From the NCBI GenBank assembly GCA_038858525.1, contig JAWCFL010000001.1, forward strand, positions 2,053 to 66,052: a DNA stretch of 64,000 nucleotides, given 5' to 3'. Both the position numbers and the translations under genes were made by a program. Below, one piece after another: positions 18,225-59,425 of this stretch. Position 1 is the stretch's first letter. Each line of letters opens with the position of its first letter. The DNA is from Candidatus Jordarchaeales archaeon (GTDB lineage: Archaea > Asgardarchaeota > Jordiarchaeia > Jordiarchaeales > Freyrarchaeaceae). A model generated the notes under the pieces. The model searched no databases. It was not told the origin of the DNA and saw nothing but the letters and a program-made list of their open reading frames with translations.

Positions 18225-21200
18225 ATGGCTAAAGACTTTGTGTCTTTGATTGCCAGTAAATTTGGTCTCAGTGAGGATGAAGCAAAAGTATATAGCTTAT
18301 TCATTCTGTATAGAATTCTTACTTTGGGGGAAATATGCTATCACACGGCTCTTCCTACTTCAAAGGTTGAGTCTATTATTCAGTCCCTTAAGGATAAAGG
18401 CCTGATATCCCATGTTCCAGGTGTAATTGAAAGATATGTAGCCGTAACTCCCTTCAGGGCGCTATCTAAAGTGGCAGGCGATTTTATAAAGACGGCAGAG
18501 GAGGCAGATGCAAAATTAAGGAAGCATTTTGAAGTTAGCAAAGCTGACATAAAGAGAGCTGTTGACTCCTTTAAGTCCAACTTGAAGGATTCCGTGACGA
18601 AAGAGCTGCAGACTCTGAGGGGAGAGGTAAATAAGGCGAGCGAGCTTTTGGAAAAACTAGTTCAACGAGAGAAAGCGGACTTAAGTGACATGATAAAAAG
18701 AGCGGAATCTTATTCCTTAGGCCAACTGGAAAGTTACAAAAGATTTAGTGAGGAGTCTTTAACTTTAGTTAAAAGTGAGGTCGAAGAAGAATTAAAAAGC
18801 GTTTTAAACGAAGTGAGAAGAGTCACTGGGCAAAGTGCTGAAAGAGCATCAAATACTCTTGCATCTATGCTAGACAATGCGAATGTTATGTTGGGAGAAA
18901 TTGAGAAAAAAGTGATAAAGGATGTTTCGAAGATAGCGGAAACGACTGCTCTGACGGCGGGCAAGATCGCCGAGAAAGTAATGGAAGCCAAAAGTGAGTA
19001 TGATTCTAAAGTAAGGGAGACTGTCGAAGTTGCTAAGGGGATTACTTCTAAAACGATAGATCTGTTGAGAAAAGAGCTGGATGAACGAGCTGGTTTAATA
19101 GAGAGAATAACGTCTGAAACAATACGAAAAAGCATAGAGAGAAGAAAGGAGCAGGATAATAAGTTAGAGAAAATATTGAGCACGTCTCTGAGAGGTTCAG
19201 CTTCAGAGATCGCTAAAAGTATTTCTTCTTTCTACACTTCGGCTTTAAGGCCTCTCTGGTCCTTAAGTAGAGAGCATGAAAAATGGATTCAAAATATTTC
19301 AGAGCGCACTAGTAAGCTTGTAGATGCAAGCATTTCGCGTCTTTCTTTCATGATTGAGGAAACGAAGGCAAAAATTGCTGAACGCATTAAATCACAGTTT
19401 GAAATTCAAGAAGAAGTATTGAGAGGATTTGGCTCAAAAGTAAGAGAGCACGTGACGTCTAGTCTTAGGGAGTTTGATGCGGCTTCTTCTTCGACTAGAG
19501 AGCGGTTCTCGTCAGTCATAATGGAGAACACAAAAGCCACTAACGAAACCTTCGAGAAAACGAGGAAAGCAGTTGAGTCACTCGTATCAGAGAACGTGGA
19601 GATTATAAGAAATATGCTGAAAAAGGTTGAAGAGGAAGTTCAGGCATCACTGGTCACAGAGAGAGAGGCCGAGGAAAAGGAGTTTTCTAAGTTTAAAGAC
19701 GCGTTTTCGTCTATGTTGGAAGTTTCTAAGCGTGAGTTGACCGAGGCAACAGGGTTAATGTCTGAAAACGCACTTAAGGAAATTTATACACGGACAACGG
19801 AATTTATAAATGAATTGAAAAAGCTGAGGGAGAAAGTTTCCGAGGCCATCGAGAAGGAATTGAAGATGGTCAGGTGGGAGGCTGAGGAGGCACGAGGAAG
19901 CATAGAGAGATTTTTGGTTCAACGTATCACCGGTATGGAGGAGTATGCAGAACGCGTAAAGCAGCAGTTGGAGAGTATGGTCAAAGAGAGGCTGGAGGAG
20001 CTGAGTATCAGTGCTGAAGCTGTCCAAGTAGGATTTGCTGAATCAATGGACAAGATATTAGACAGAGTTAGGGAGATAGTAGAGGACGCGAAGAATGGTT
20101 TTTCGGTTTTACTTTCCACGCAGCTATCTTCATTTAAGGAAAATTTAGATAAGCTTGGCATGTCATTTGCCGATGAGCTAAGCCGGCAGGTGGATGCAAC
20201 TAAAACGGAGGCAAACGAAATTCTTTCAAACTTTTCAGAGGAGCTAGAGCACAGAGTTTCAGAAGTTGAGACTTTAGCGAAGCAGATTATGGAGAACGCG
20301 GAGGCTATGTTTAAAAGACAAGAAAAAATTAGCAGGCAACTTAGAGACGTAGTTTCAACTTTCCTTGTCCAAGAAACAAAGCGATATATAGATTCTTTTT
20401 CTAATATTTTAATTTCTTTAAACGAACGCTCGGTCTCCCTCATAGAGTCGAAGATAAAGTCGTTGGAGAAGCTCAGAAACAATCTCGAAAAAGAACTTCA
20501 CTCCCTTATAGTTAGTGAGGGGGCGGCGATAGAGGAAAAAAACGCTAGTTTAAGAGAGACGGTAAACTCATATGTTTCGGAGAGATACAAGGAATACGTT
20601 GAGTCATTAGAGGGCGTTGCTAAAGAGGTTGAAGAGCTACTTCGCGAACATATTGAATATTATAAAGAGCACCTAGAGGGGCTTATAAGAGGCTTATCAG
20701 ACGCTCTTGAAGAAACTTTAGGAAGAATATCTCAGGCCTCTAACGCAGTTATAAGTGATGCAGCTACTCAATTGGATACAGAAAAGGAAGCAATTGCGGG
20801 GGAAGCAAAGATTTTAATCGAAGCTGCGAGTAAAATGCTTGATTTTTACGTTAAGAAGCTGAGGAGCAGCATTGCGGCCTCTTTAAATGATCTACTGAAG
20901 GAAGTATCAAGAAGAATAGAGAGCTTAAGGGAGGAGGGGGAAAGAGTCGAATCTTTAGTGAGGGAGGTCGTCGAGGCGGACTTTAAAGAATTTGAAGAGG
21001 CGCTCAAGAACTTAGAAGGAGCTTTAGCTTTAAATGTTAATAATGAAAAGGAAAGAACACTTTCCAGTGTTATCCAGTTAGAGTTAAAGTTACAAGATTT
21101 GCTAAACAAGGTGGGAGAGGAACTTGGCGCTTACTCAAGAGGTATACAGGAAGAAAGCAAAGGAATTTTAGATAATTACTCGAGAGAAGTAACAGGTCTT

Positions 21201-22148
21201 CTGGATGCTTCTGGTAAAGAAATTAACAGTTACCTAGAAGAAAGTAGGAAAATTTTCGGAGTAAAAACAGATGAAGTTAAAGACATGATTAATGGATTAA
21301 TGGAGGAGCTTTCAAAAGAATTAGATGAAATAATACATAGAACACGTGAAGGCATAGCTACATTAGTAAAGGGGTATCATGAAAAAATAGAACGAAATGT
21401 GGAGGAGACTAGAGCACACCTTATAAGTGAGCTTAAAACATGCATAGAAAAAGAAGAAAAAGACGTGACTAGCTTTAGTCAAAACGTAGTTGAAACGCTA
21501 TTTCGTCTAATGGAAAGTTGTGGAAAAACATTGGAGGAATTAAACAACAATGTGACATCATACTTAAGTGAGTTTTACGAGAAAGCCGCCGAACATTTAG
21601 ATGGTACAATGAAGGGAATAAGTGAAAAAGTAAGAATTCTACTTGAAGAGTTAAGAGCCGTAGAGTCAATATCTAGCTCAGCATGGGAGGAACTGGCGAA
21701 AGCCCCCCTAAGCATTGAGAAAACGTGTTTCATAGCTACGAGAGAAGTAGTAAAAACGCGGATGAGGGATATGGCAAAGCGAACTAAAAATTCATTGATA
21801 ATAGTGGCTCCCGAGCTAGGAGAACTTCCAATAGAGGAGTTATTAGGGATAGAGCCGCCAGCGAAATTGTACGTGTTCACTGATTTCGATTTACCCTCAG
21901 AGCTCAGCATTTTGAAGAGCTTAATAAGTAAGAGGAATCTCCGTTTGTGGAAAAGAAAGGAAAAAGAATTTTTCATGTGTCTACGGGACGATGAGGAAAT
22001 TCTGATTGCTCCAGTATCCAAAGAAACACCTATCTTAGCAATAGTGAGCGAAGAGCGAAGCTACATTGATTCTTACAAACGCACATTAATACCGTTTCTC
22101 AGGTCGACAGCTAAAGAAGTGAAATTGAAAGACATAGACTCTGTTTAG
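18225..22148 (+). CDS. Giant coiled-coil protein with N-terminal TrmB-type wHTH and C-terminal TrmB-C-like domain
   Basis: 1307 aa. Residues 1-80 read LSEDEAKVYSLFILYRILTLGEICYHTALPTSKVESIIQSLKDKGLISHV (TrmB-family HTH). They are followed by more than 1000 residues of uninterrupted Glu/Lys/Leu-rich heptad sequence and a 140-aa non-helical C-terminal domain. Confidence 0.7.
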   Translation: MAKDFVSLIASKFGLSEDEAKVYSLFILYRILTLGEICYHTALPTSKVESIIQSLKDKGLISHVPGVIERYVAVTPFRALSKVAGDFIKTAEEADAKLRKHFEVSKADIKRAVDSFKSNLKDSVTKELQTLRGEVNKASELLEKLVQREKADLSDMIKRAESYSLGQLESYKRFSEESLTLVKSEVEEELKSVLNEVRRVTGQSAERASNTLASMLDNANVMLGEIEKKVIKDVSKIAETTALTAGKIAEKVMEAKSEYDSKVRETVEVAKGITSKTIDLLRKELDERAGLIERITSETIRKSIERRKEQDNKLEKILSTSLRGSASEIAKSISSFYTSALRPLWSLSREHEKWIQNISERTSKLVDASISRLSFMIEETKAKIAERIKSQFEIQEEVLRGFGSKVREHVTSSLREFDAASSSTRERFSSVIMENTKATNETFEKTRKAVESLVSENVEIIRNMLKKVEEEVQASLVTEREAEEKEFSKFKDAFSSMLEVSKRELTEATGLMSENALKEIYTRTTEFINELKKLREKVSEAIEKELKMVRWEAEEARGSIERFLVQRITGMEEYAERVKQQLESMVKERLEELSISAEAVQVGFAESMDKILDRVREIVEDAKNGFSVLLSTQLSSFKENLDKLGMSFADELSRQVDATKTEANEILSNFSEELEHRVSEVETLAKQIMENAEAMFKRQEKISRQLRDVVSTFLVQETKRYIDSFSNILISLNERSVSLIESKIKSLEKLRNNLEKELHSLIVSEGAAIEEKNASLRETVNSYVSERYKEYVESLEGVAKEVEELLREHIEYYKEHLEGLIRGLSDALEETLGRISQASNAVISDAATQLDTEKEAIAGEAKILIEAASKMLDFYVKKLRSSIAASLNDLLKEVSRRIESLREEGERVESLVREVVEADFKEFEEALKNLEGALALNVNNEKERTLSSVIQLELKLQDLLNKVGEELGAYSRGIQEESKGILDNYSREVTGLLDASGKEINSYLEESRKIFGVKTDEVKDMINGLMEELSKELDEIIHRTREGIATLVKGYHEKIERNVEETRAHLISELKTCIEKEEKDVTSFSQNVVETLFRLMESCGKTLEELNNNVTSYLSEFYEKAAEHLDGTMKGISEKVRILLEELRAVESISSSAWEELAKAPLSIEKTCFIATREVVKTRMRDMAKRTKNSLIIVAPELGELPIEELLGIEPPAKLYVFTDFDLPSELSILKSLISKRNLRLWKRKEKEFFMCLRDDEEILIAPVSKETPILAIVSEERSYIDSYKRTLIPFLRSTAKEVKLKDIDSV

Positions 22149-23577: not shown

Positions 23578-23722
23578 AAGGATCCCCTCACTGATTCGCT
23601 CAAATAAAGACGCTGAATCTAAGAATTAAGAAGGAATATATAAATGCTTTTTCACATCAAAACCTCAAAAATTAAGTATCTTCACGTCTAATCATGGAAA
23701 ACAAAAATATGACGGAGGTTGG

Positions 23723-23812
23723 TGGGCGGGCCAGGATTTGAACCTGGGTCCTCCACGGTGTCAACTTCGCCTCTTCTTTGTGTGGCGTCATAACCAGCTA
23801 GACTACCCGCCC
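23723..23812 (-). tRNA. Intron-containing tRNA (anticodon unresolved; one parse gives GAC = Val)
   Basis: Reverse complement reads GGGCGGG-TA-GTCT-AGCTGGTTA-TGAC...GACCCAGGTTCAAATCCTGGCCCGCCC-A. The acceptor and T-arm are canonical; the 90-nt length implies a roughly 16-nt intron in or next to the anticodon loop. Confidence 0.65.
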
Positions 23813-23828
23813 ACTAAGTGATGATTGG

Positions 23829-23970
23829 TGGACCCCGCGGGACTTACTCAACCCTTTCTAGGTTTTTGAATTCGCGGTCCCCTCTTCAGGACACCCGCGG
23901 CCTCCGCGATGCCGACGCGCCCCCTTGGTTGGGGGAAACGCGGTGCTCTACCAGGCTGAGCTAGGGGCCC
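23829..23970 (-). tRNA. tRNA-Ala (GGC or UGC anticodon) with 2-3 introns, including insertions in the T-loop
   Basis: Reverse complement reads GGGCCCCTAGCTCAGCCTGGTAGAGCACCGCG...CGCGGAGGCCGCGGG...CCCGCGGGGTCCA. A G3:U70 wobble pair is present (Ala identity). A 23-nt insert in the anticodon loop leaves TTGGCAT or TTTGCAT. About 45 extra nt lie between the T-stem halves, with an internal TTCAAA. Length 142 minus 68 gives 74 nt mature. Confidence 0.6.
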
Positions 23971-24399
23971 ACCGTGAATGACAAAGTATTCATGGAGATT
24001 TAAGTATTTTTCGGGAGGCAAGAATACTAAATTATTTTTCCTAAGTTAGCTGTTTTTTAAGAGCTGAAGTTTAGAATATTGGTTTAAATGCTTCTTAAAC
24101 TGTGAAGCTGTTGCAAGAAAGGTAATAAATTTAGGAAAGCGAAATTAGTTGCAACGCTATAGTACTACATAGTGAAGTATCAAGTTAAAGAGCCACCTTT
24201 CATTTTGCTTTCGGTGATTAATTTTAATAGGTGGCGGTGTTCTGGACTCAGGTTTAAATGCGTTTAAAGACCAAATTGTTTAAGAAATGGGATCTGGGCT
24301 GATTCGAATGAAAGTAAGCGGACGGCGGTGTTTCATGTTTGTTGTTTGTCTTTTATGTTGGGGTTTTAATAGAAAGGTGAAGTTTAGAGAACGGGTGGG

Positions 24400-40214: not shown

Positions 40215-42640
40215 TTGTCAAGGAATGAGAAAATCGTGCTCTGGTTTGAGGAGATAGGAAAGGAGGACGTTGCGCTTGTAGGCGGGAAATGCGCAAACCT
40301 TGGGGAAATGATCACAAAGGCTAAGGTGCCTGTACCTCCGGGGTTTGCGGTGACGACGTATGCATATAAACGATTCATAAAGGAGACCAAGATAATGGAC
40401 AAGATCTTCAGCAAACTCAGGGAAATTGACGTTAGAGATTTGAAGCAACTGGAAGAGGCGTCTAGAGAAATAAGGAAGCTTATTGAGGGGACTAAGGTTC
40501 CAGAAGACATACAGTCAGCTATATTAAGTGCTTATGATGATTTAGCAAGAAGAGTTGGCAGAGAGCCGCTTGTAGCTGTCCGTTCTAGCGCGTCGGCAGA
40601 GGATAGAGACAGGGTCTCCCTCTCTTGCCGGGCGCTAGTTTTGCCGGGCAGCAAGATACTTTCCTGAATGTCTCTAAAGGTGAGCTTGTAGAGAGTGTAA
40701 GGCGTTGCTGGAGTAGCCTATTTACTCCTAGAGCGATAGCATATAGAGAGGAGAAGGGGTTTAGACATGAGGACGTGTCAATAGGGGTTGCCGTTCAGGA
40801 GATGGTTGACGCGAAAGCTGCGGGAGTTATGTTTAGCATACACCCAGTTACAGGGGATAAAAACAGAATTCTTATAGAGGCCAGCTGGGGACTTGGTGAG
40901 GCCGTAGTAAGTGGGGCTGTGACCCCTGACACATACATAGTAGATAAAAAAACTTTTGAAATTCTCGAAAAACAAATTGCAACTAAAAAAGTGGAGCATA
41001 TAAGGGATCCTAAAACTGGAAAGACGATACATGTGGAGGTCCCGAAGGAGAGGCAAAACGTTCCAGCCTTAACGGATGAAGAAATAAAGGCGCTGGCGAG
41101 ATACGCCCGCCAGATAGAGCAGCATTATGGTACGCCGCAGGACATGGAGTGGGCTATTGACAAAGACGGGAGGATATTTATACTCCAAGCAAGGCCAGAA
41201 ACAGTTCACTCGACGGGATCAGCCATAGTGGAGCAACGATTAGTGGAGGAAAAGGAGGGGGAAGTGCTGGTGAGGGGATTGCCTGTTTCACCAGGAGTAG
41301 GGGCAGGGAAAGTCAAGGTAATCCTTAACGTTAAGGACATTGACAAGGTCAAAGAGGGGGATGTGCTTGTCACTAAGATGACTACACCTGACTGGGTTCC
41401 AGCCATGAAGAGGGCGGCAGCAATAGTTACGGATGAGGGAGGATACACTTGTCATGCAGCTATAGTGTCACGCGAGCTTGGCGTCCCATGTGTTGTTGGG
41501 ACTGGAAACGCGACAGAGGTGCTGGTGAATGTTGATGCTGTGACTGTTGATGGTGGAAAAGGATTAGTGTATCGCGGGATAATTAAAGCTGCTAAGGAGG
41601 AAGAATTTAGAGCTCCGGCTGTCGTTGAAGCTCAGATGATGATTCCGACTGCTACGAAGATATACGTTAACCTCTCAATACCAGAAATCGCTGATAAGGT
41701 TGCAAGGGAGACAATGGCTGATGGAGTTGGGCTTCTCAGAGCGGAGCACATGATGGTGACCATAGGCAAGCATCCTCGGAAGCTTATAGAGGAAGGTGGA
41801 GAAAACCTAATGGTTGAAAAATTCGCAGAGGGAATACGGAAAGTTGCAGAAGCGTTCTACCCGGGACCTGTAGTTTACAGGTTCTTAGACTTTAAGCCGG
41901 ACGAGTTCCTAGCCTTAGAAGGAGGGGAAAAATACGAGCTAGAGGCGGGGCACGTTGGTCCAAATCCCATGATAGGATACAGAGGCCAGTACAGGTACGT
42001 TAAGGAGCCAGATATATTCAGGTTGGAGTGCAGAGCTGTAAAGAAGGTTAGGGACGAGTTTGGGCTGAAAAACGTGTGGGTTATGGTTCCCTTTGTCAGC
42101 ACAGTAGAGGTCTTCAGAGAAGTAAAAAGGATAATGAAAGAAGAAGGGCTTGACAGGGAGAAGGATCCGGACTTTAAACTGTGGATAATGGTTGAGGTGC
42201 CAAGCAGCGTCTTTCTTATAGATAAGTTCTGCGAGGAGGGCATAGATGGGGTTTCCTTCGGCACTAACGACCTTACAATGCTGGTGCTAGGAGTTGATAG
42301 GAACGACGCAGCTGTCCAGGAACTCTACGACGAACGCAACTTAGCAGTTCTTAGAGCAATAGCGTACACGATAAAGATATGCGAAAAATATGGAGTCACT
42401 ACATCCATATGTGGGCAAGCTCCCAGTGTTTACCCAGACTACTTAGAGTTTCTAGTGAGAATGGGCGCTACCTCGATAAGTGTAAATCCAGATGCTGTGA
42501 AGCGAACACGTGAGATGGTGGCAAGAATAGAGCAGAAGATCATGATGGAAAAAGCGCTGAACGTGAAGCCCAGAATCAAAATAGGAAAAAGTTTTCTTGA
42601 AGAGGTGGCGTTCTGGAAATTGATAGACGATGAGGCATGA
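40215..42640 (+). pseudogene. ppsA: Phosphoenolpyruvate synthase interrupted by a frameshift (ORFs 40215-40667 and 40625-42640)
   Basis: The N-terminal ORF ends ...VAVRSSASAEDRDRVSLSCRALVLPGSKILS. The second frame resumes LPGASFAGQQDTFLNV, the canonical continuation of the ATP-grasp motif. The phosphohistidine domain and PEP-utilizer TIM barrel are intact. The frame shifts near 40611-40616, beside a duplicated ttgccgggc. This could be a sequencing error, a true pseudogene or recoding. Confidence 0.85.
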
Positions 42641-56780: not shown

Positions 56781-56914
56781 TGCGGGGGTTCCCTAGTTTG
56801 GCCAACTCTGAGACTGGCTAAAGGGGCCGGGCTTAGGTCCAGAGTGGTAAGAAACCCGGTGGTGTAGAATGTTAAGTAGCACAAACCTGCGTGGGTTCAA
56901 ATCCCACCCCCCGC
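56781..56914 (+). tRNA. tRNA-Leu(UAG) with three ~16-17-nt introns (D-loop, anticodon loop, variable arm)
   Basis: GCGGGGG-TT-CCC[29-nt D-loop]GGG-G-CCGGG-CTTAGG[16 nt]A-CCCGG-[31-nt variable]-GTGGGTTCAAATCCCAC-CCCCCGC-A. 134 nt, against about 86 nt mature. Confidence 0.7.
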
Positions 56915-56923
56915 ATCACTTGA

Positions 56924-59301: not shown

Positions 59302-59425
59302 TGCAGGGGGTGGGATTTGAACCCACGCAGGCTTACGTTCCCAGTTTGGGTCTACGCCACGCGGGCCTCAGCCGCGTTCCTTTGACTTAGCCCATAGTAT
59401 ACACGTCTGGCTCGGACACCCCTGC
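59302..59425 (-). tRNA. tRNA-Leu(GAG) with insertions in the D-loop (~20 nt) and variable arm (~19 nt)
   Basis: Reverse complement reads GCAGGGG-TG-TCC[33-nt D-loop]GGA-A-CGCGG-CTGAGGC-CCGCG-[33-nt variable]-GTGGGTTCAAATCCCAC-CCCCTGC-A. The anticodon loop is intact (GAG). Confidence 0.65.

Follow-up and report, generated by a model that had tools for sequence, protein, structure and literature searches.

Four predicted bulge-helix-bulge introns in a tandem tRNA-Ala and tRNA-Val gene pair of a Jordarchaeales archaeon

In the complete genomes of Freyarchaeia and Atabeyarchaeia, 92-95% of the tRNA genes bear introns; more than half of those genes carry several, at non-canonical sites, and many of the introns are missed by tRNAscan-SE (Valentin-Alvarado et al. 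2024, Nat Commun 15:6384, PMC11291895). Supplementary Data 4 of that study lists genes with as many as four introns, the shortest exons being of 7-9 nucleotides (nt). Jordarchaeia and Freyarchaeia are two names for one group (PMC11291895), and intron-rich tRNA sets in this class were reported only in 2024. Outside the Asgard archaea, the accounts of Thermoproteales in PMC4090602 and PMC4033280 describe introns at 30/31, 53/54, 56/57, 59/60 and other sites, with up to three per gene. Here we describe a stretch of 64,000 nt from Candidatus Jordarchaeales archaeon (GCA_038858525.1, contig JAWCFL010000001.1, positions 2,053-66,052 of the forward strand; "the window" below), in which a tRNA-Ala(GGC) gene with three interruptions and a tRNA-Val(GAC) gene with one lie in tandem on the minus strand. 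The pair is a further example of the phenomenon already published for its class: all four tRNA genes of the window are interrupted, three of the four by several introns, for a total of nine.

We consider it very likely, judging from sequence and comparative evidence, that the two genes are expressed as a dicistronic Ala-Val precursor, from which four bulge-helix-bulge (BHB) introns would be removed by the endonuclease EndA and whose exons would be joined by the ligase RtcB.

The Ala-Val pair and its proposed splicing

Between 23720 and 23970, two GC-rich tRNA-like units stand out on the minus strand of a genome with about 41% GC, and the open reading frame (ORF) list of the window has no entry of 80 amino acids (aa) or more overlapping 23578-24399. 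In the tRNA-Ala unit, the acceptor stem GGGCCCC/GGGGTCC, with G3:U70 and discriminator base A73, can be read directly, and the D arm is normal. The other two arms are not: the anticodon stem CCGCG/CGCGG encloses 30 nt and the T stem GCGGG/CCCGC encloses 52 nt, where 7 would be normal in each case. The three inserts come to 23+23+22 = 68 nt, with 45 nt of these in the T arm. The tRNA-Val unit is ordinary apart from 16 extra nt at the anticodon arm. It begins 16 nt after the discriminator base of tRNA-Ala, or 13 nt counted from the encoded CCA.

Standard detectors see the pair incompletely. Rfam, in gathering as well as E-value mode, detects tRNA-Val only and misses tRNA-Ala (Table 1); ARAGORN on the raw sequence reports tRNA-Val as tRNA-??? 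with a four-base anticodon and also misses tRNA-Ala. Once spliced in silico, the sequences of all four species in which the locus was compared (see below) are recognized by ARAGORN as tRNA-Ala(ggc) and tRNA-Val(gac).

To define splice sites, a BHB was taken as two 3-nt bulges with a 4-base-pair (bp) helix between them, either strict (hBHBh') or relaxed (HBh' or hBH), with cleavage after the second base of each bulge. The canonical 37/38 case leads to this rule, and the AFU and ARMAN-2 EndA-RNA crystal structures agree with it: cleavage there is prevented by a 2'-deoxy substitution at bulge base 2 (PMC12397907). A cut was accepted only if it restored the cloverleaf and a BHB was present; precursor position 1 is window position 23970.

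By this rule, a BHB forms at every proposed junction in all four species. Ala intron 1 has bulges UU|U and UC|G around the helix CGCG:CGCG, with an inner helix of 5 bp and an outer one of 1 bp, and its exact cut at 33/34 makes the anticodon GGC, so that the NGC anticodon expected of tRNA-Ala joins G3:U70 and A73. Ala intron 2, at 53/54, has bulges GG|U and AA|U, again with CGCG:CGCG between them, an inner helix of 5 bp and no outer helix. Ala intron 3 has bulges AA|A and AA|G, the helix A:U U:G U:A C:G, and inner and outer helices of 5 and 2 bp; its outer helix and first helix pair draw on the last three bases of intron 2. The Val intron, with bulges AC|A and AA|G, the helix CGCC:GGCG, an outer helix of 3 bp and almost no inner helix, is of the hBH or bulge-helix-loop type. 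When introns were shuffled with the exon ends fixed (20,000 shuffles), a BHB arose at the required register in 1.3% of cases for Ala intron 1, 0.1% for Ala intron 2, 3.5% for Ala intron 3 and 0.4% for the Val intron.

Much of this had been anticipated by a first-pass annotation made from the sequence alone. Its coordinates for two minus-strand tRNAs 16 nt apart, its reading of the Ala identity, and its proposal of multiple non-canonical introns of the endonuclease type all hold. The 23-nt insert in the Ala anticodon loop, which it had placed away from 37/38, lies at 33/34, and the roughly 45 extra nt of the Ala T arm do fall into two segments, at 53/54 and at 58/59 (or 59/60). For tRNA-Val, the 16-nt insert, the UUGACAC loop and the Val-GAC identity were correctly seen; the suggested position, 31/32 or 32/33, gives way to 30/31, where the G31:C39 pair is formed, the same loop results and the BHB fits.

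Ala introns 1 and 2, both of 23 nt, both follow CCGCG-NN and are 52% identical by eye, which hints at duplication. We do not claim them as paralogues; the likeness is no more than structural constraints explain.

How might such a precursor be processed? A single promoter most likely drives it. The 16-nt block CCGAAAAATACTTAAA upstream of tRNA-Ala is invariant in the four species, while the intergenic DNA around it differs among them, and we suggest that it is the transcription factor B recognition element (BRE) and TATA promoter of the dicistron. Its distance from the gene agrees with the 30-49 nt reported for archaeal tRNA promoters (PMC3218864). Since tRNA-Val has no promoter-like block of its own, the two genes are probably cotranscribed. 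The T-run TTTTTGTTTT, 13 nt past the CCA of tRNA-Val and weakly conserved in relatives, may be the terminator.

In each intron, the 4-nt stretch before the last two bases would pair with exon bases that lie 2 nt ahead of the 5' splice site, and the resulting 4-bp helix between two 3-nt bulges would mark both splice sites. We imagine that EndA, presumably a broad-specificity (alpha-beta)2 enzyme of the kind described for Asgard archaea, in which an L1 loop confers broad specificity (Kaneta et al. 2018, PMC5829648), would cut between the second and third bulge base on each side, after which RtcB would join the exons. The BHB helix of intron 1 would borrow the 5' strand of the anticodon stem, such that BHB conformers would compete with the mature fold. 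An RtcB gene lies in the window, about 10 kb from the tRNA pair (Table 1).

The two introns of the T arm add a further twist. The BHB of intron 2 uses precursor positions 95-98 as a helix strand and 99-101 as a bulge, and that of intron 3 uses 98-99 as its outer helix and 100-103 as a helix strand; because both need G98-U101, they cannot coexist. Since the folds overlap, the two introns are likely to be removed one after the other. With stepwise removal, the micro-exon of 5-6 nt (UUCAA or UUCAAA) would never be free but always part of a larger piece. Once intron 2 has been removed, G75-G77 could replace G98-A100 through wobble pairs. The overlapping folds thus offer a testable model of ordered splicing, and, if this is true, the novel element in these tRNAs would be an obligatory stepwise splicing enforced by the overlap.

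Conservation and competing explanations

The locus is identical in six independent metagenome-assembled genomes, on contigs of 50-470 kb, and is found in three diverged versions: L126 (psmB 96.5% identical), L128-L130 (90%) and L007/L085 (83%). A metagenome scan with a loose exon-2 pattern matched at least 120 stretches, L085 and L126 being the relevant ones among the matches listed. The comparison covers four species-level lineages. All versions have the gene order psmB, tRNA-Val, tRNA-Ala, two small ORFs and FKBP. Beyond them, where the neighbouring proteasome beta is 72% identical, synteny is lost and there is no tRNA upstream, which confines the comparison to these four. The DNA flanking the tRNA region has itself diverged to the point that blastn finds no alignment between the window and L007.

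All four introns are kept in the four lineages, with lengths of 22-23 nt (Ala 1), 18-23 nt (Ala 2), 20-22 nt (Ala 3) and 14-18 nt (Val). Within tRNA-Ala, 71 of 72 exon columns are invariant, compared to 35 of 68 intron columns (Fisher p = 6e-12); the introns thus evolve faster than the exons while their helices are kept. Variation in the introns is confined to hairpin loops and, as compensatory pairs, to inner helices, and no pair is broken. At least five double compensatory changes are seen in inner helices. In L128, a C:G pair of Ala intron 1 has become U:A (with a helix of 4-6 bp across the species) and a U:A pair of Ala intron 2 has become C:G. For Ala intron 3, the compensatory changes (L128, L007) run from A:U to G:C or C:G and from C:G to U:A; the Val intron has a G:C to G:U change in L007. 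This pattern of conservation and covariation is the reason for which we exclude a pseudogene, an artefact and retained expansion segments, as detailed below.

Several observations weigh against the interpretation that EndA removes BHB introns from this precursor, or at least against parts of it. One concerns intron 3. With the strict BHB, cut at 58/59, L007 has the T-loop UUCAAAU and the three other species have UUCAAGU; if the cut falls one base downstream, at 59/60, all four share UUCAAAU, the T-loop that the remaining three tRNAs of the window also have. The G of UUCAAGU is the only variable "exon" column, which favours 59/60. A strict BHB at 59/60 was looked for and rejected, as it does not form; there is only a form with an enlarged 5-nt 3' bulge beside the T stem. 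We regard the two registers as about equally probable. The 60 ORFs of the window include no EndA domain. Only intron 3 is a strict hBHBh', the other three motifs being one flanking helix short (HBh' or hBH); such relaxed motifs are the kind of substrate attributed to broad-specificity EndA (PMC5829648, PMC4090602).

Folding and scanning also give less comfort than one might wish. Registers slightly offset from those of the BHB, with smaller bulges, are preferred in minimum-free-energy folds. Whether at 37 or at 75 °C, folds of the precursor and its sub-regions contain the right helices in shifted registers, and the BHB is not the minimum-energy structure; it is a conformer imposed by the model, as is usual for such motifs. 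Energies of hand-built conformers were uninformative on the BHB. Permissive enumeration on these GC-rich precursors yields hundreds of BHB candidates. Across the window, a generic scan gave 652 loose hits and 19 strict ones, the latter to be set beside 9-23 in Markov-simulated sequence, and so was no richer than random sequence. Because the scan matches random sequence, a BHB alone is weak evidence and counts only together with a cloverleaf or a reading-frame constraint.

Could the exon boundaries lie elsewhere, with intron 1 ending one base later to give a UGC anticodon, or with a single large intron spanning the T-loop region? The UUU|...|GGC context would indeed permit a UUUGCAU loop, which ARAGORN accepts as Ala(tgc), and a BHB-like candidate can be drawn across precursor positions 73-128. 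However, the (35,59) register needed for the first fails the BHB test, and UGC was rejected on that ground, whereas at (34,58) the 4-bp helix is perfect and bounded by two 3-nt bulges in all four species. The large intron would remove the T-loop and half of the T stem, and between introns 2 and 3 the block UUCAA(A) does not vary although both its flanks do. We therefore hold other boundaries to be improbable.

That tRNA-Ala might be a decaying pseudogene riddled with insertions, leaving tRNA-Val as the only functional gene of the pair, is suggested by its escape from both covariance and heuristic detectors and by the extreme load of three interruptions in one 74-nt gene. Against this, its exons are identical in four species in which the neighbouring proteins are 83-97% identical, its BHBs are kept through compensatory changes, the promoter-like upstream block is conserved, and G3:U70, A73 and all stems are intact. 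We find this explanation very hard to credit. It is harder still to suppose that the inserts are retained as expansion segments, or that the region encodes some other structured RNA resembling tRNA. The precursor does fold stably (-65 kcal/mol, z = -2.2), but inserts kept in the anticodon loop and the T-loop would abolish decoding and the tertiary interaction of the D- and T-loops, insert lengths drift between species, and no other Rfam family matches the region. Finally, an assembly or binning artefact, for instance a chimera of reads from different organisms, comes to mind for any metagenome-assembled genome and may be dismissed as next to impossible, given the identical sequence in six independent assemblies and the diverged, collinear versions in three further lineages with conserved gene order.

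Two more familiar classes can be set aside as well. The exons are collinear, on one strand and within 142 nt, so that these are not split or permuted tRNAs, and the introns, at 16-23 nt and with no Rfam match, are not self-splicing group I or II introns.

Other interrupted genes in the window

GC-rich islands in two further intergenic gaps proved to be class II tRNA genes, tRNA-Leu(UAG) and tRNA-Leu(GAG), missed by ARAGORN and Rfam; with tRNA-Ala, three of the four tRNA genes of the window thus go undetected by both. The raw sequences of the Leu genes give no detector match, and their spliced forms fold as cloverleaves. Passing brute-force combinations of introns through ARAGORN was noisy for these genes and was replaced by a checked analysis by hand. 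The variable-arm introns of the two genes agree in their site and in their BHB context (AG|A ... AA|N).

Taken together with the insert in pps described below, nine of the ten introns follow one minimal design, 16-23 nt long, in which a single bulge base comes first, then a small hairpin, then 4 nt able to pair with the exon bases that lie 2 nt ahead of the 5' cut, and finally two bases. Those last two bases are AA in seven of the nine tRNA introns. The exception to the design is the D-loop intron of tRNA-Leu(UAG), whose 4-bp helix is formed with the 3' exon.

The tenth case is a protein-coding gene. The phosphoenolpyruvate (PEP) synthase gene, pps (40215-42640, plus strand), appears as two overlapping ORFs, 40215-40667 and 40625-42640, and the same split is seen on 24 contigs from independent assemblies. 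Removal of the 20-nt insert AGAGACAGGGTCTCCCTCTC, which follows ...SSASAED and lies between Asp and Leu codons, yields a single reading frame of 801 aa, whose alignment with solved PEP synthases, and with the continuous homologues of other archaea, runs ungapped through the junction. A perfect hBHBh' of the strict type can be drawn for the insert with its flanks: the helix GAGG:CCUC lies between the bulges AU|A and UC|U, with 6 bp in the outer helix and 5 bp in the inner one. Both predicted cuts coincide with the codon boundary.

Throughout Jordarchaeia/Freyarchaeia there are N-terminal fragments, 130-165 aa long, that stop at the insert point. In five relatives (L139-L143), inserts of 18, 19, 28, 29 and 30 nt lie at the same codon boundary, and one of these is the complete, long-read-validated genome of Freyarchaeum deiterrae (CP147778.1). 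All five have the same BHB layout with covarying inner helices, F. deiterrae having one A-C mismatch in the 4-bp helix, and splicing in silico restores an ORF of 796-803 aa in every one. In F. deiterrae (around 1,661,000-1,662,100), the predicted spliced junction would have GCAGAGGAT directly joined to TTGCCAGGCGC.

We lean towards the view that the expansion of BHB introns in this Asgard class extends beyond tRNA and that the pps insert is a candidate mRNA intron, spliced by the endonuclease. Programmed frameshifting is ruled out as a general explanation, two of the inserts being in frame but containing a stop codon. A genuinely split gene is the less likely alternative. No other split gene in the window is convincing.

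The closest precedent is the BHB intron in the cbf5 pre-mRNA of Desulfurococcales and Sulfolobales, which as of 2009 was the only one confirmed in an archaeal protein gene (PMC2738675). As there, a short BHB insert in a protein gene, conserved in a clade, can be mistaken for a frameshift or a split gene (PMC2738675). Here, in contrast, the gene is pps, the phylum is Asgard, and the insert is a predicted intron. In the literature searched, we found no report of BHB introns in Asgard protein genes, and the pps insert, if real, would be the first in a protein gene outside cbf5 found in that literature. It would then imply that EndA and RtcB splice the mRNA of a gene of central metabolism in archaea closely related to eukaryotes, would bear on the origin of protein-gene introns and of unconventional splicing of the HAC1/XBP1 kind, and, if confirmed, would matter more than the tRNA finding.

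Two neighbouring features may be recorded here. In one Freyarchaeota relative (L140), a remnant of an IS605-type OrfB/TnpB gene (Cas12f1-like) lies at 915-1921 on the minus strand, between the enolase gene and pps. In the window, 18225-22148 (plus strand) encodes a 1307-aa protein that has an N-terminal TrmB-type helix-turn-helix and, after it, some 1000 residues of repeats resembling coiled coils or apolipoproteins; relatives keep this protein beside the tRNA locus (1307-1308 aa).

Table 1. Positions of the tRNA genes, their exons and predicted introns, and associated features in the window
Feature	Position	Strand	Remarks
tRNA-Ala(GGC) gene, three introns	23829..23970	-	142 nt to discriminator A73; read directly, and ARAGORN call on spliced form
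Ala exon 1	23937..23970	-	tRNA positions 1-33
Ala intron 1, 23 nt, 33/34	23914..23936	-	precursor 35-57; BHB core
Ala exon 2	23894..23913	-	tRNA positions 34-53; begins with anticodon GGC
Ala intron 2, 23 nt, 53/54	23871..23893	-	precursor 78-100; HBh' type
Ala micro-exon 3, UUCAA	23866..23870	-	tRNA positions 54-58; 6 nt (23865-23870) in the 59/60 register of intron 3
Ala intron 3, 22 nt, 58/59	23844..23865	-	precursor 106-127; strict hBHBh'; alternative 23843-23864 (59/60)
Ala exon 4 and encoded CCA	23826..23843	-	tRNA positions 59-73
Ala encoded CCA	23826-23828	-	
tRNA-Val(GAC) gene, one intron	23723..23812	-	Rfam tRNA, 51.9 bits; ARAGORN call on spliced form
Val intron, 16 nt, 30/31	23766..23781	-	Val precursor 32-47; hBH / bulge-helix-loop type
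Val encoded CCA	23720-23722	-	
Conserved upstream block CCGAAAAATACTTAAA, 16 nt	23999..24014	-	-44 to -29 of tRNA-Ala; invariant in four species; putative promoter
T-run TTTTTGTTTT	23698..23707	-	13 nt past Val CCA; putative terminator
RtcB tRNA-splicing ligase gene, 483 aa	33225..34676	-	Pfam PF01139, 601 bits, E = 1.6e-180
pps insert AGAGACAGGGTCTCCCTCTC, 20 nt	40605-40624	+	candidate mRNA intron
tRNA-Leu(UAG) gene, three introns	56782-56915	+	spliced form is a perfect class II cloverleaf
Leu(UAG) D-loop intron, 16 nt	56805-56820	+	
Leu(UAG) canonical 37/38 intron, 16 nt	56838-56853	+	perfect hBHBh'
Leu(UAG) variable-arm intron, 17 nt	56868-56884	+	
tRNA-Leu(GAG) gene, two introns	59302-59425	-	CCA to 59299; spliced form is a perfect Leu cloverleaf
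Leu(GAG) D-loop intron, 20 nt	59387-59406	-	
Leu(GAG) variable-arm intron, 19 nt	59333-59351	-	

Comparison with known systems

The first-pass annotation had taken multi-intron tRNAs as a mark of Thermoproteales-like Crenarchaeota, and this attribution does not stand. The proteasome beta encoded beside the tRNAs matches "Candidatus Jordarchaeales" proteins at 100% and 90% identity, those of Freyarchaeota, Jordarchaeaceae and Freyarchaeum deiterrae at 65-83%, and those of Baldr-, Odin-, Hel- and other Asgard groups at 57-64%. The Jordarchaeales lineage belongs to the Promethearchaeati (the Asgard kingdom), not to the Thermoproteota. Given an Asgard host, multi-intron tRNAs are therefore not diagnostic of Thermoproteales. 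Of the contigs compared, L007 (JAPDJY010000039.1) is labelled "Thermoproteota archaeon"; its proteasome protein is annotated as Freyarchaeota and its locus is syntenic with that of the window, and the label is probably outdated.

The resemblance to Thermoproteales is nonetheless real at the level of mechanism. According to the accounts of Sugahara et al. 2008 given in PMC4090602 and PMC4033280, the introns there have BHB or relaxed BHB motifs and are linked to an (alpha-beta)2 EndA with a specific loop. The phylum is Thermoproteota in that case and Asgard in ours. Permuted tRNAs provide another parallel: in those of Thermofilum pendens and Cyanidioschyzon merolae, the T-loop is broken at 59/60 or an adjacent site, and the junction has a BHB (PMC3218864). 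The exons of the pair described here are collinear, in contrast, and a second intron lies 5-6 nt upstream.

What does the locus add, then, to the picture for its own class? The likeness to Freyarchaeia and Atabeyarchaeia is one of short non-canonical introns, several per gene, with micro-exons, and the host belongs to the same class. In contrast to the soil organism Freyarchaeum deiterrae, whose proteasome beta is about 66% identical, this is a hot-spring lineage, and it contributes a comparatively validated three-intron tRNA, with two introns inside a 7-nt T-loop, from a thermophilic branch of the class. In the Freyarchaeia table, Ala(GGC) is absent and Val(GAC) is free of introns (PMC11291895), whereas both genes bear introns here, and thus intron content varies within the class. 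It is plausible that the gap in that table reflects an undetected multi-intron Ala(GGC) gene; more generally, isoacceptors that seem to be missing from Asgard genomes may be multi-intron genes. The combination of introns at 33/34, 53/54 and 58-60, the micro-exon of 5-6 nt and the overlapping BHBs are not described in PMC11291895, and in these respects tRNA-Ala of the window extends what has been reported for Freyarchaeia and Atabeyarchaeia.

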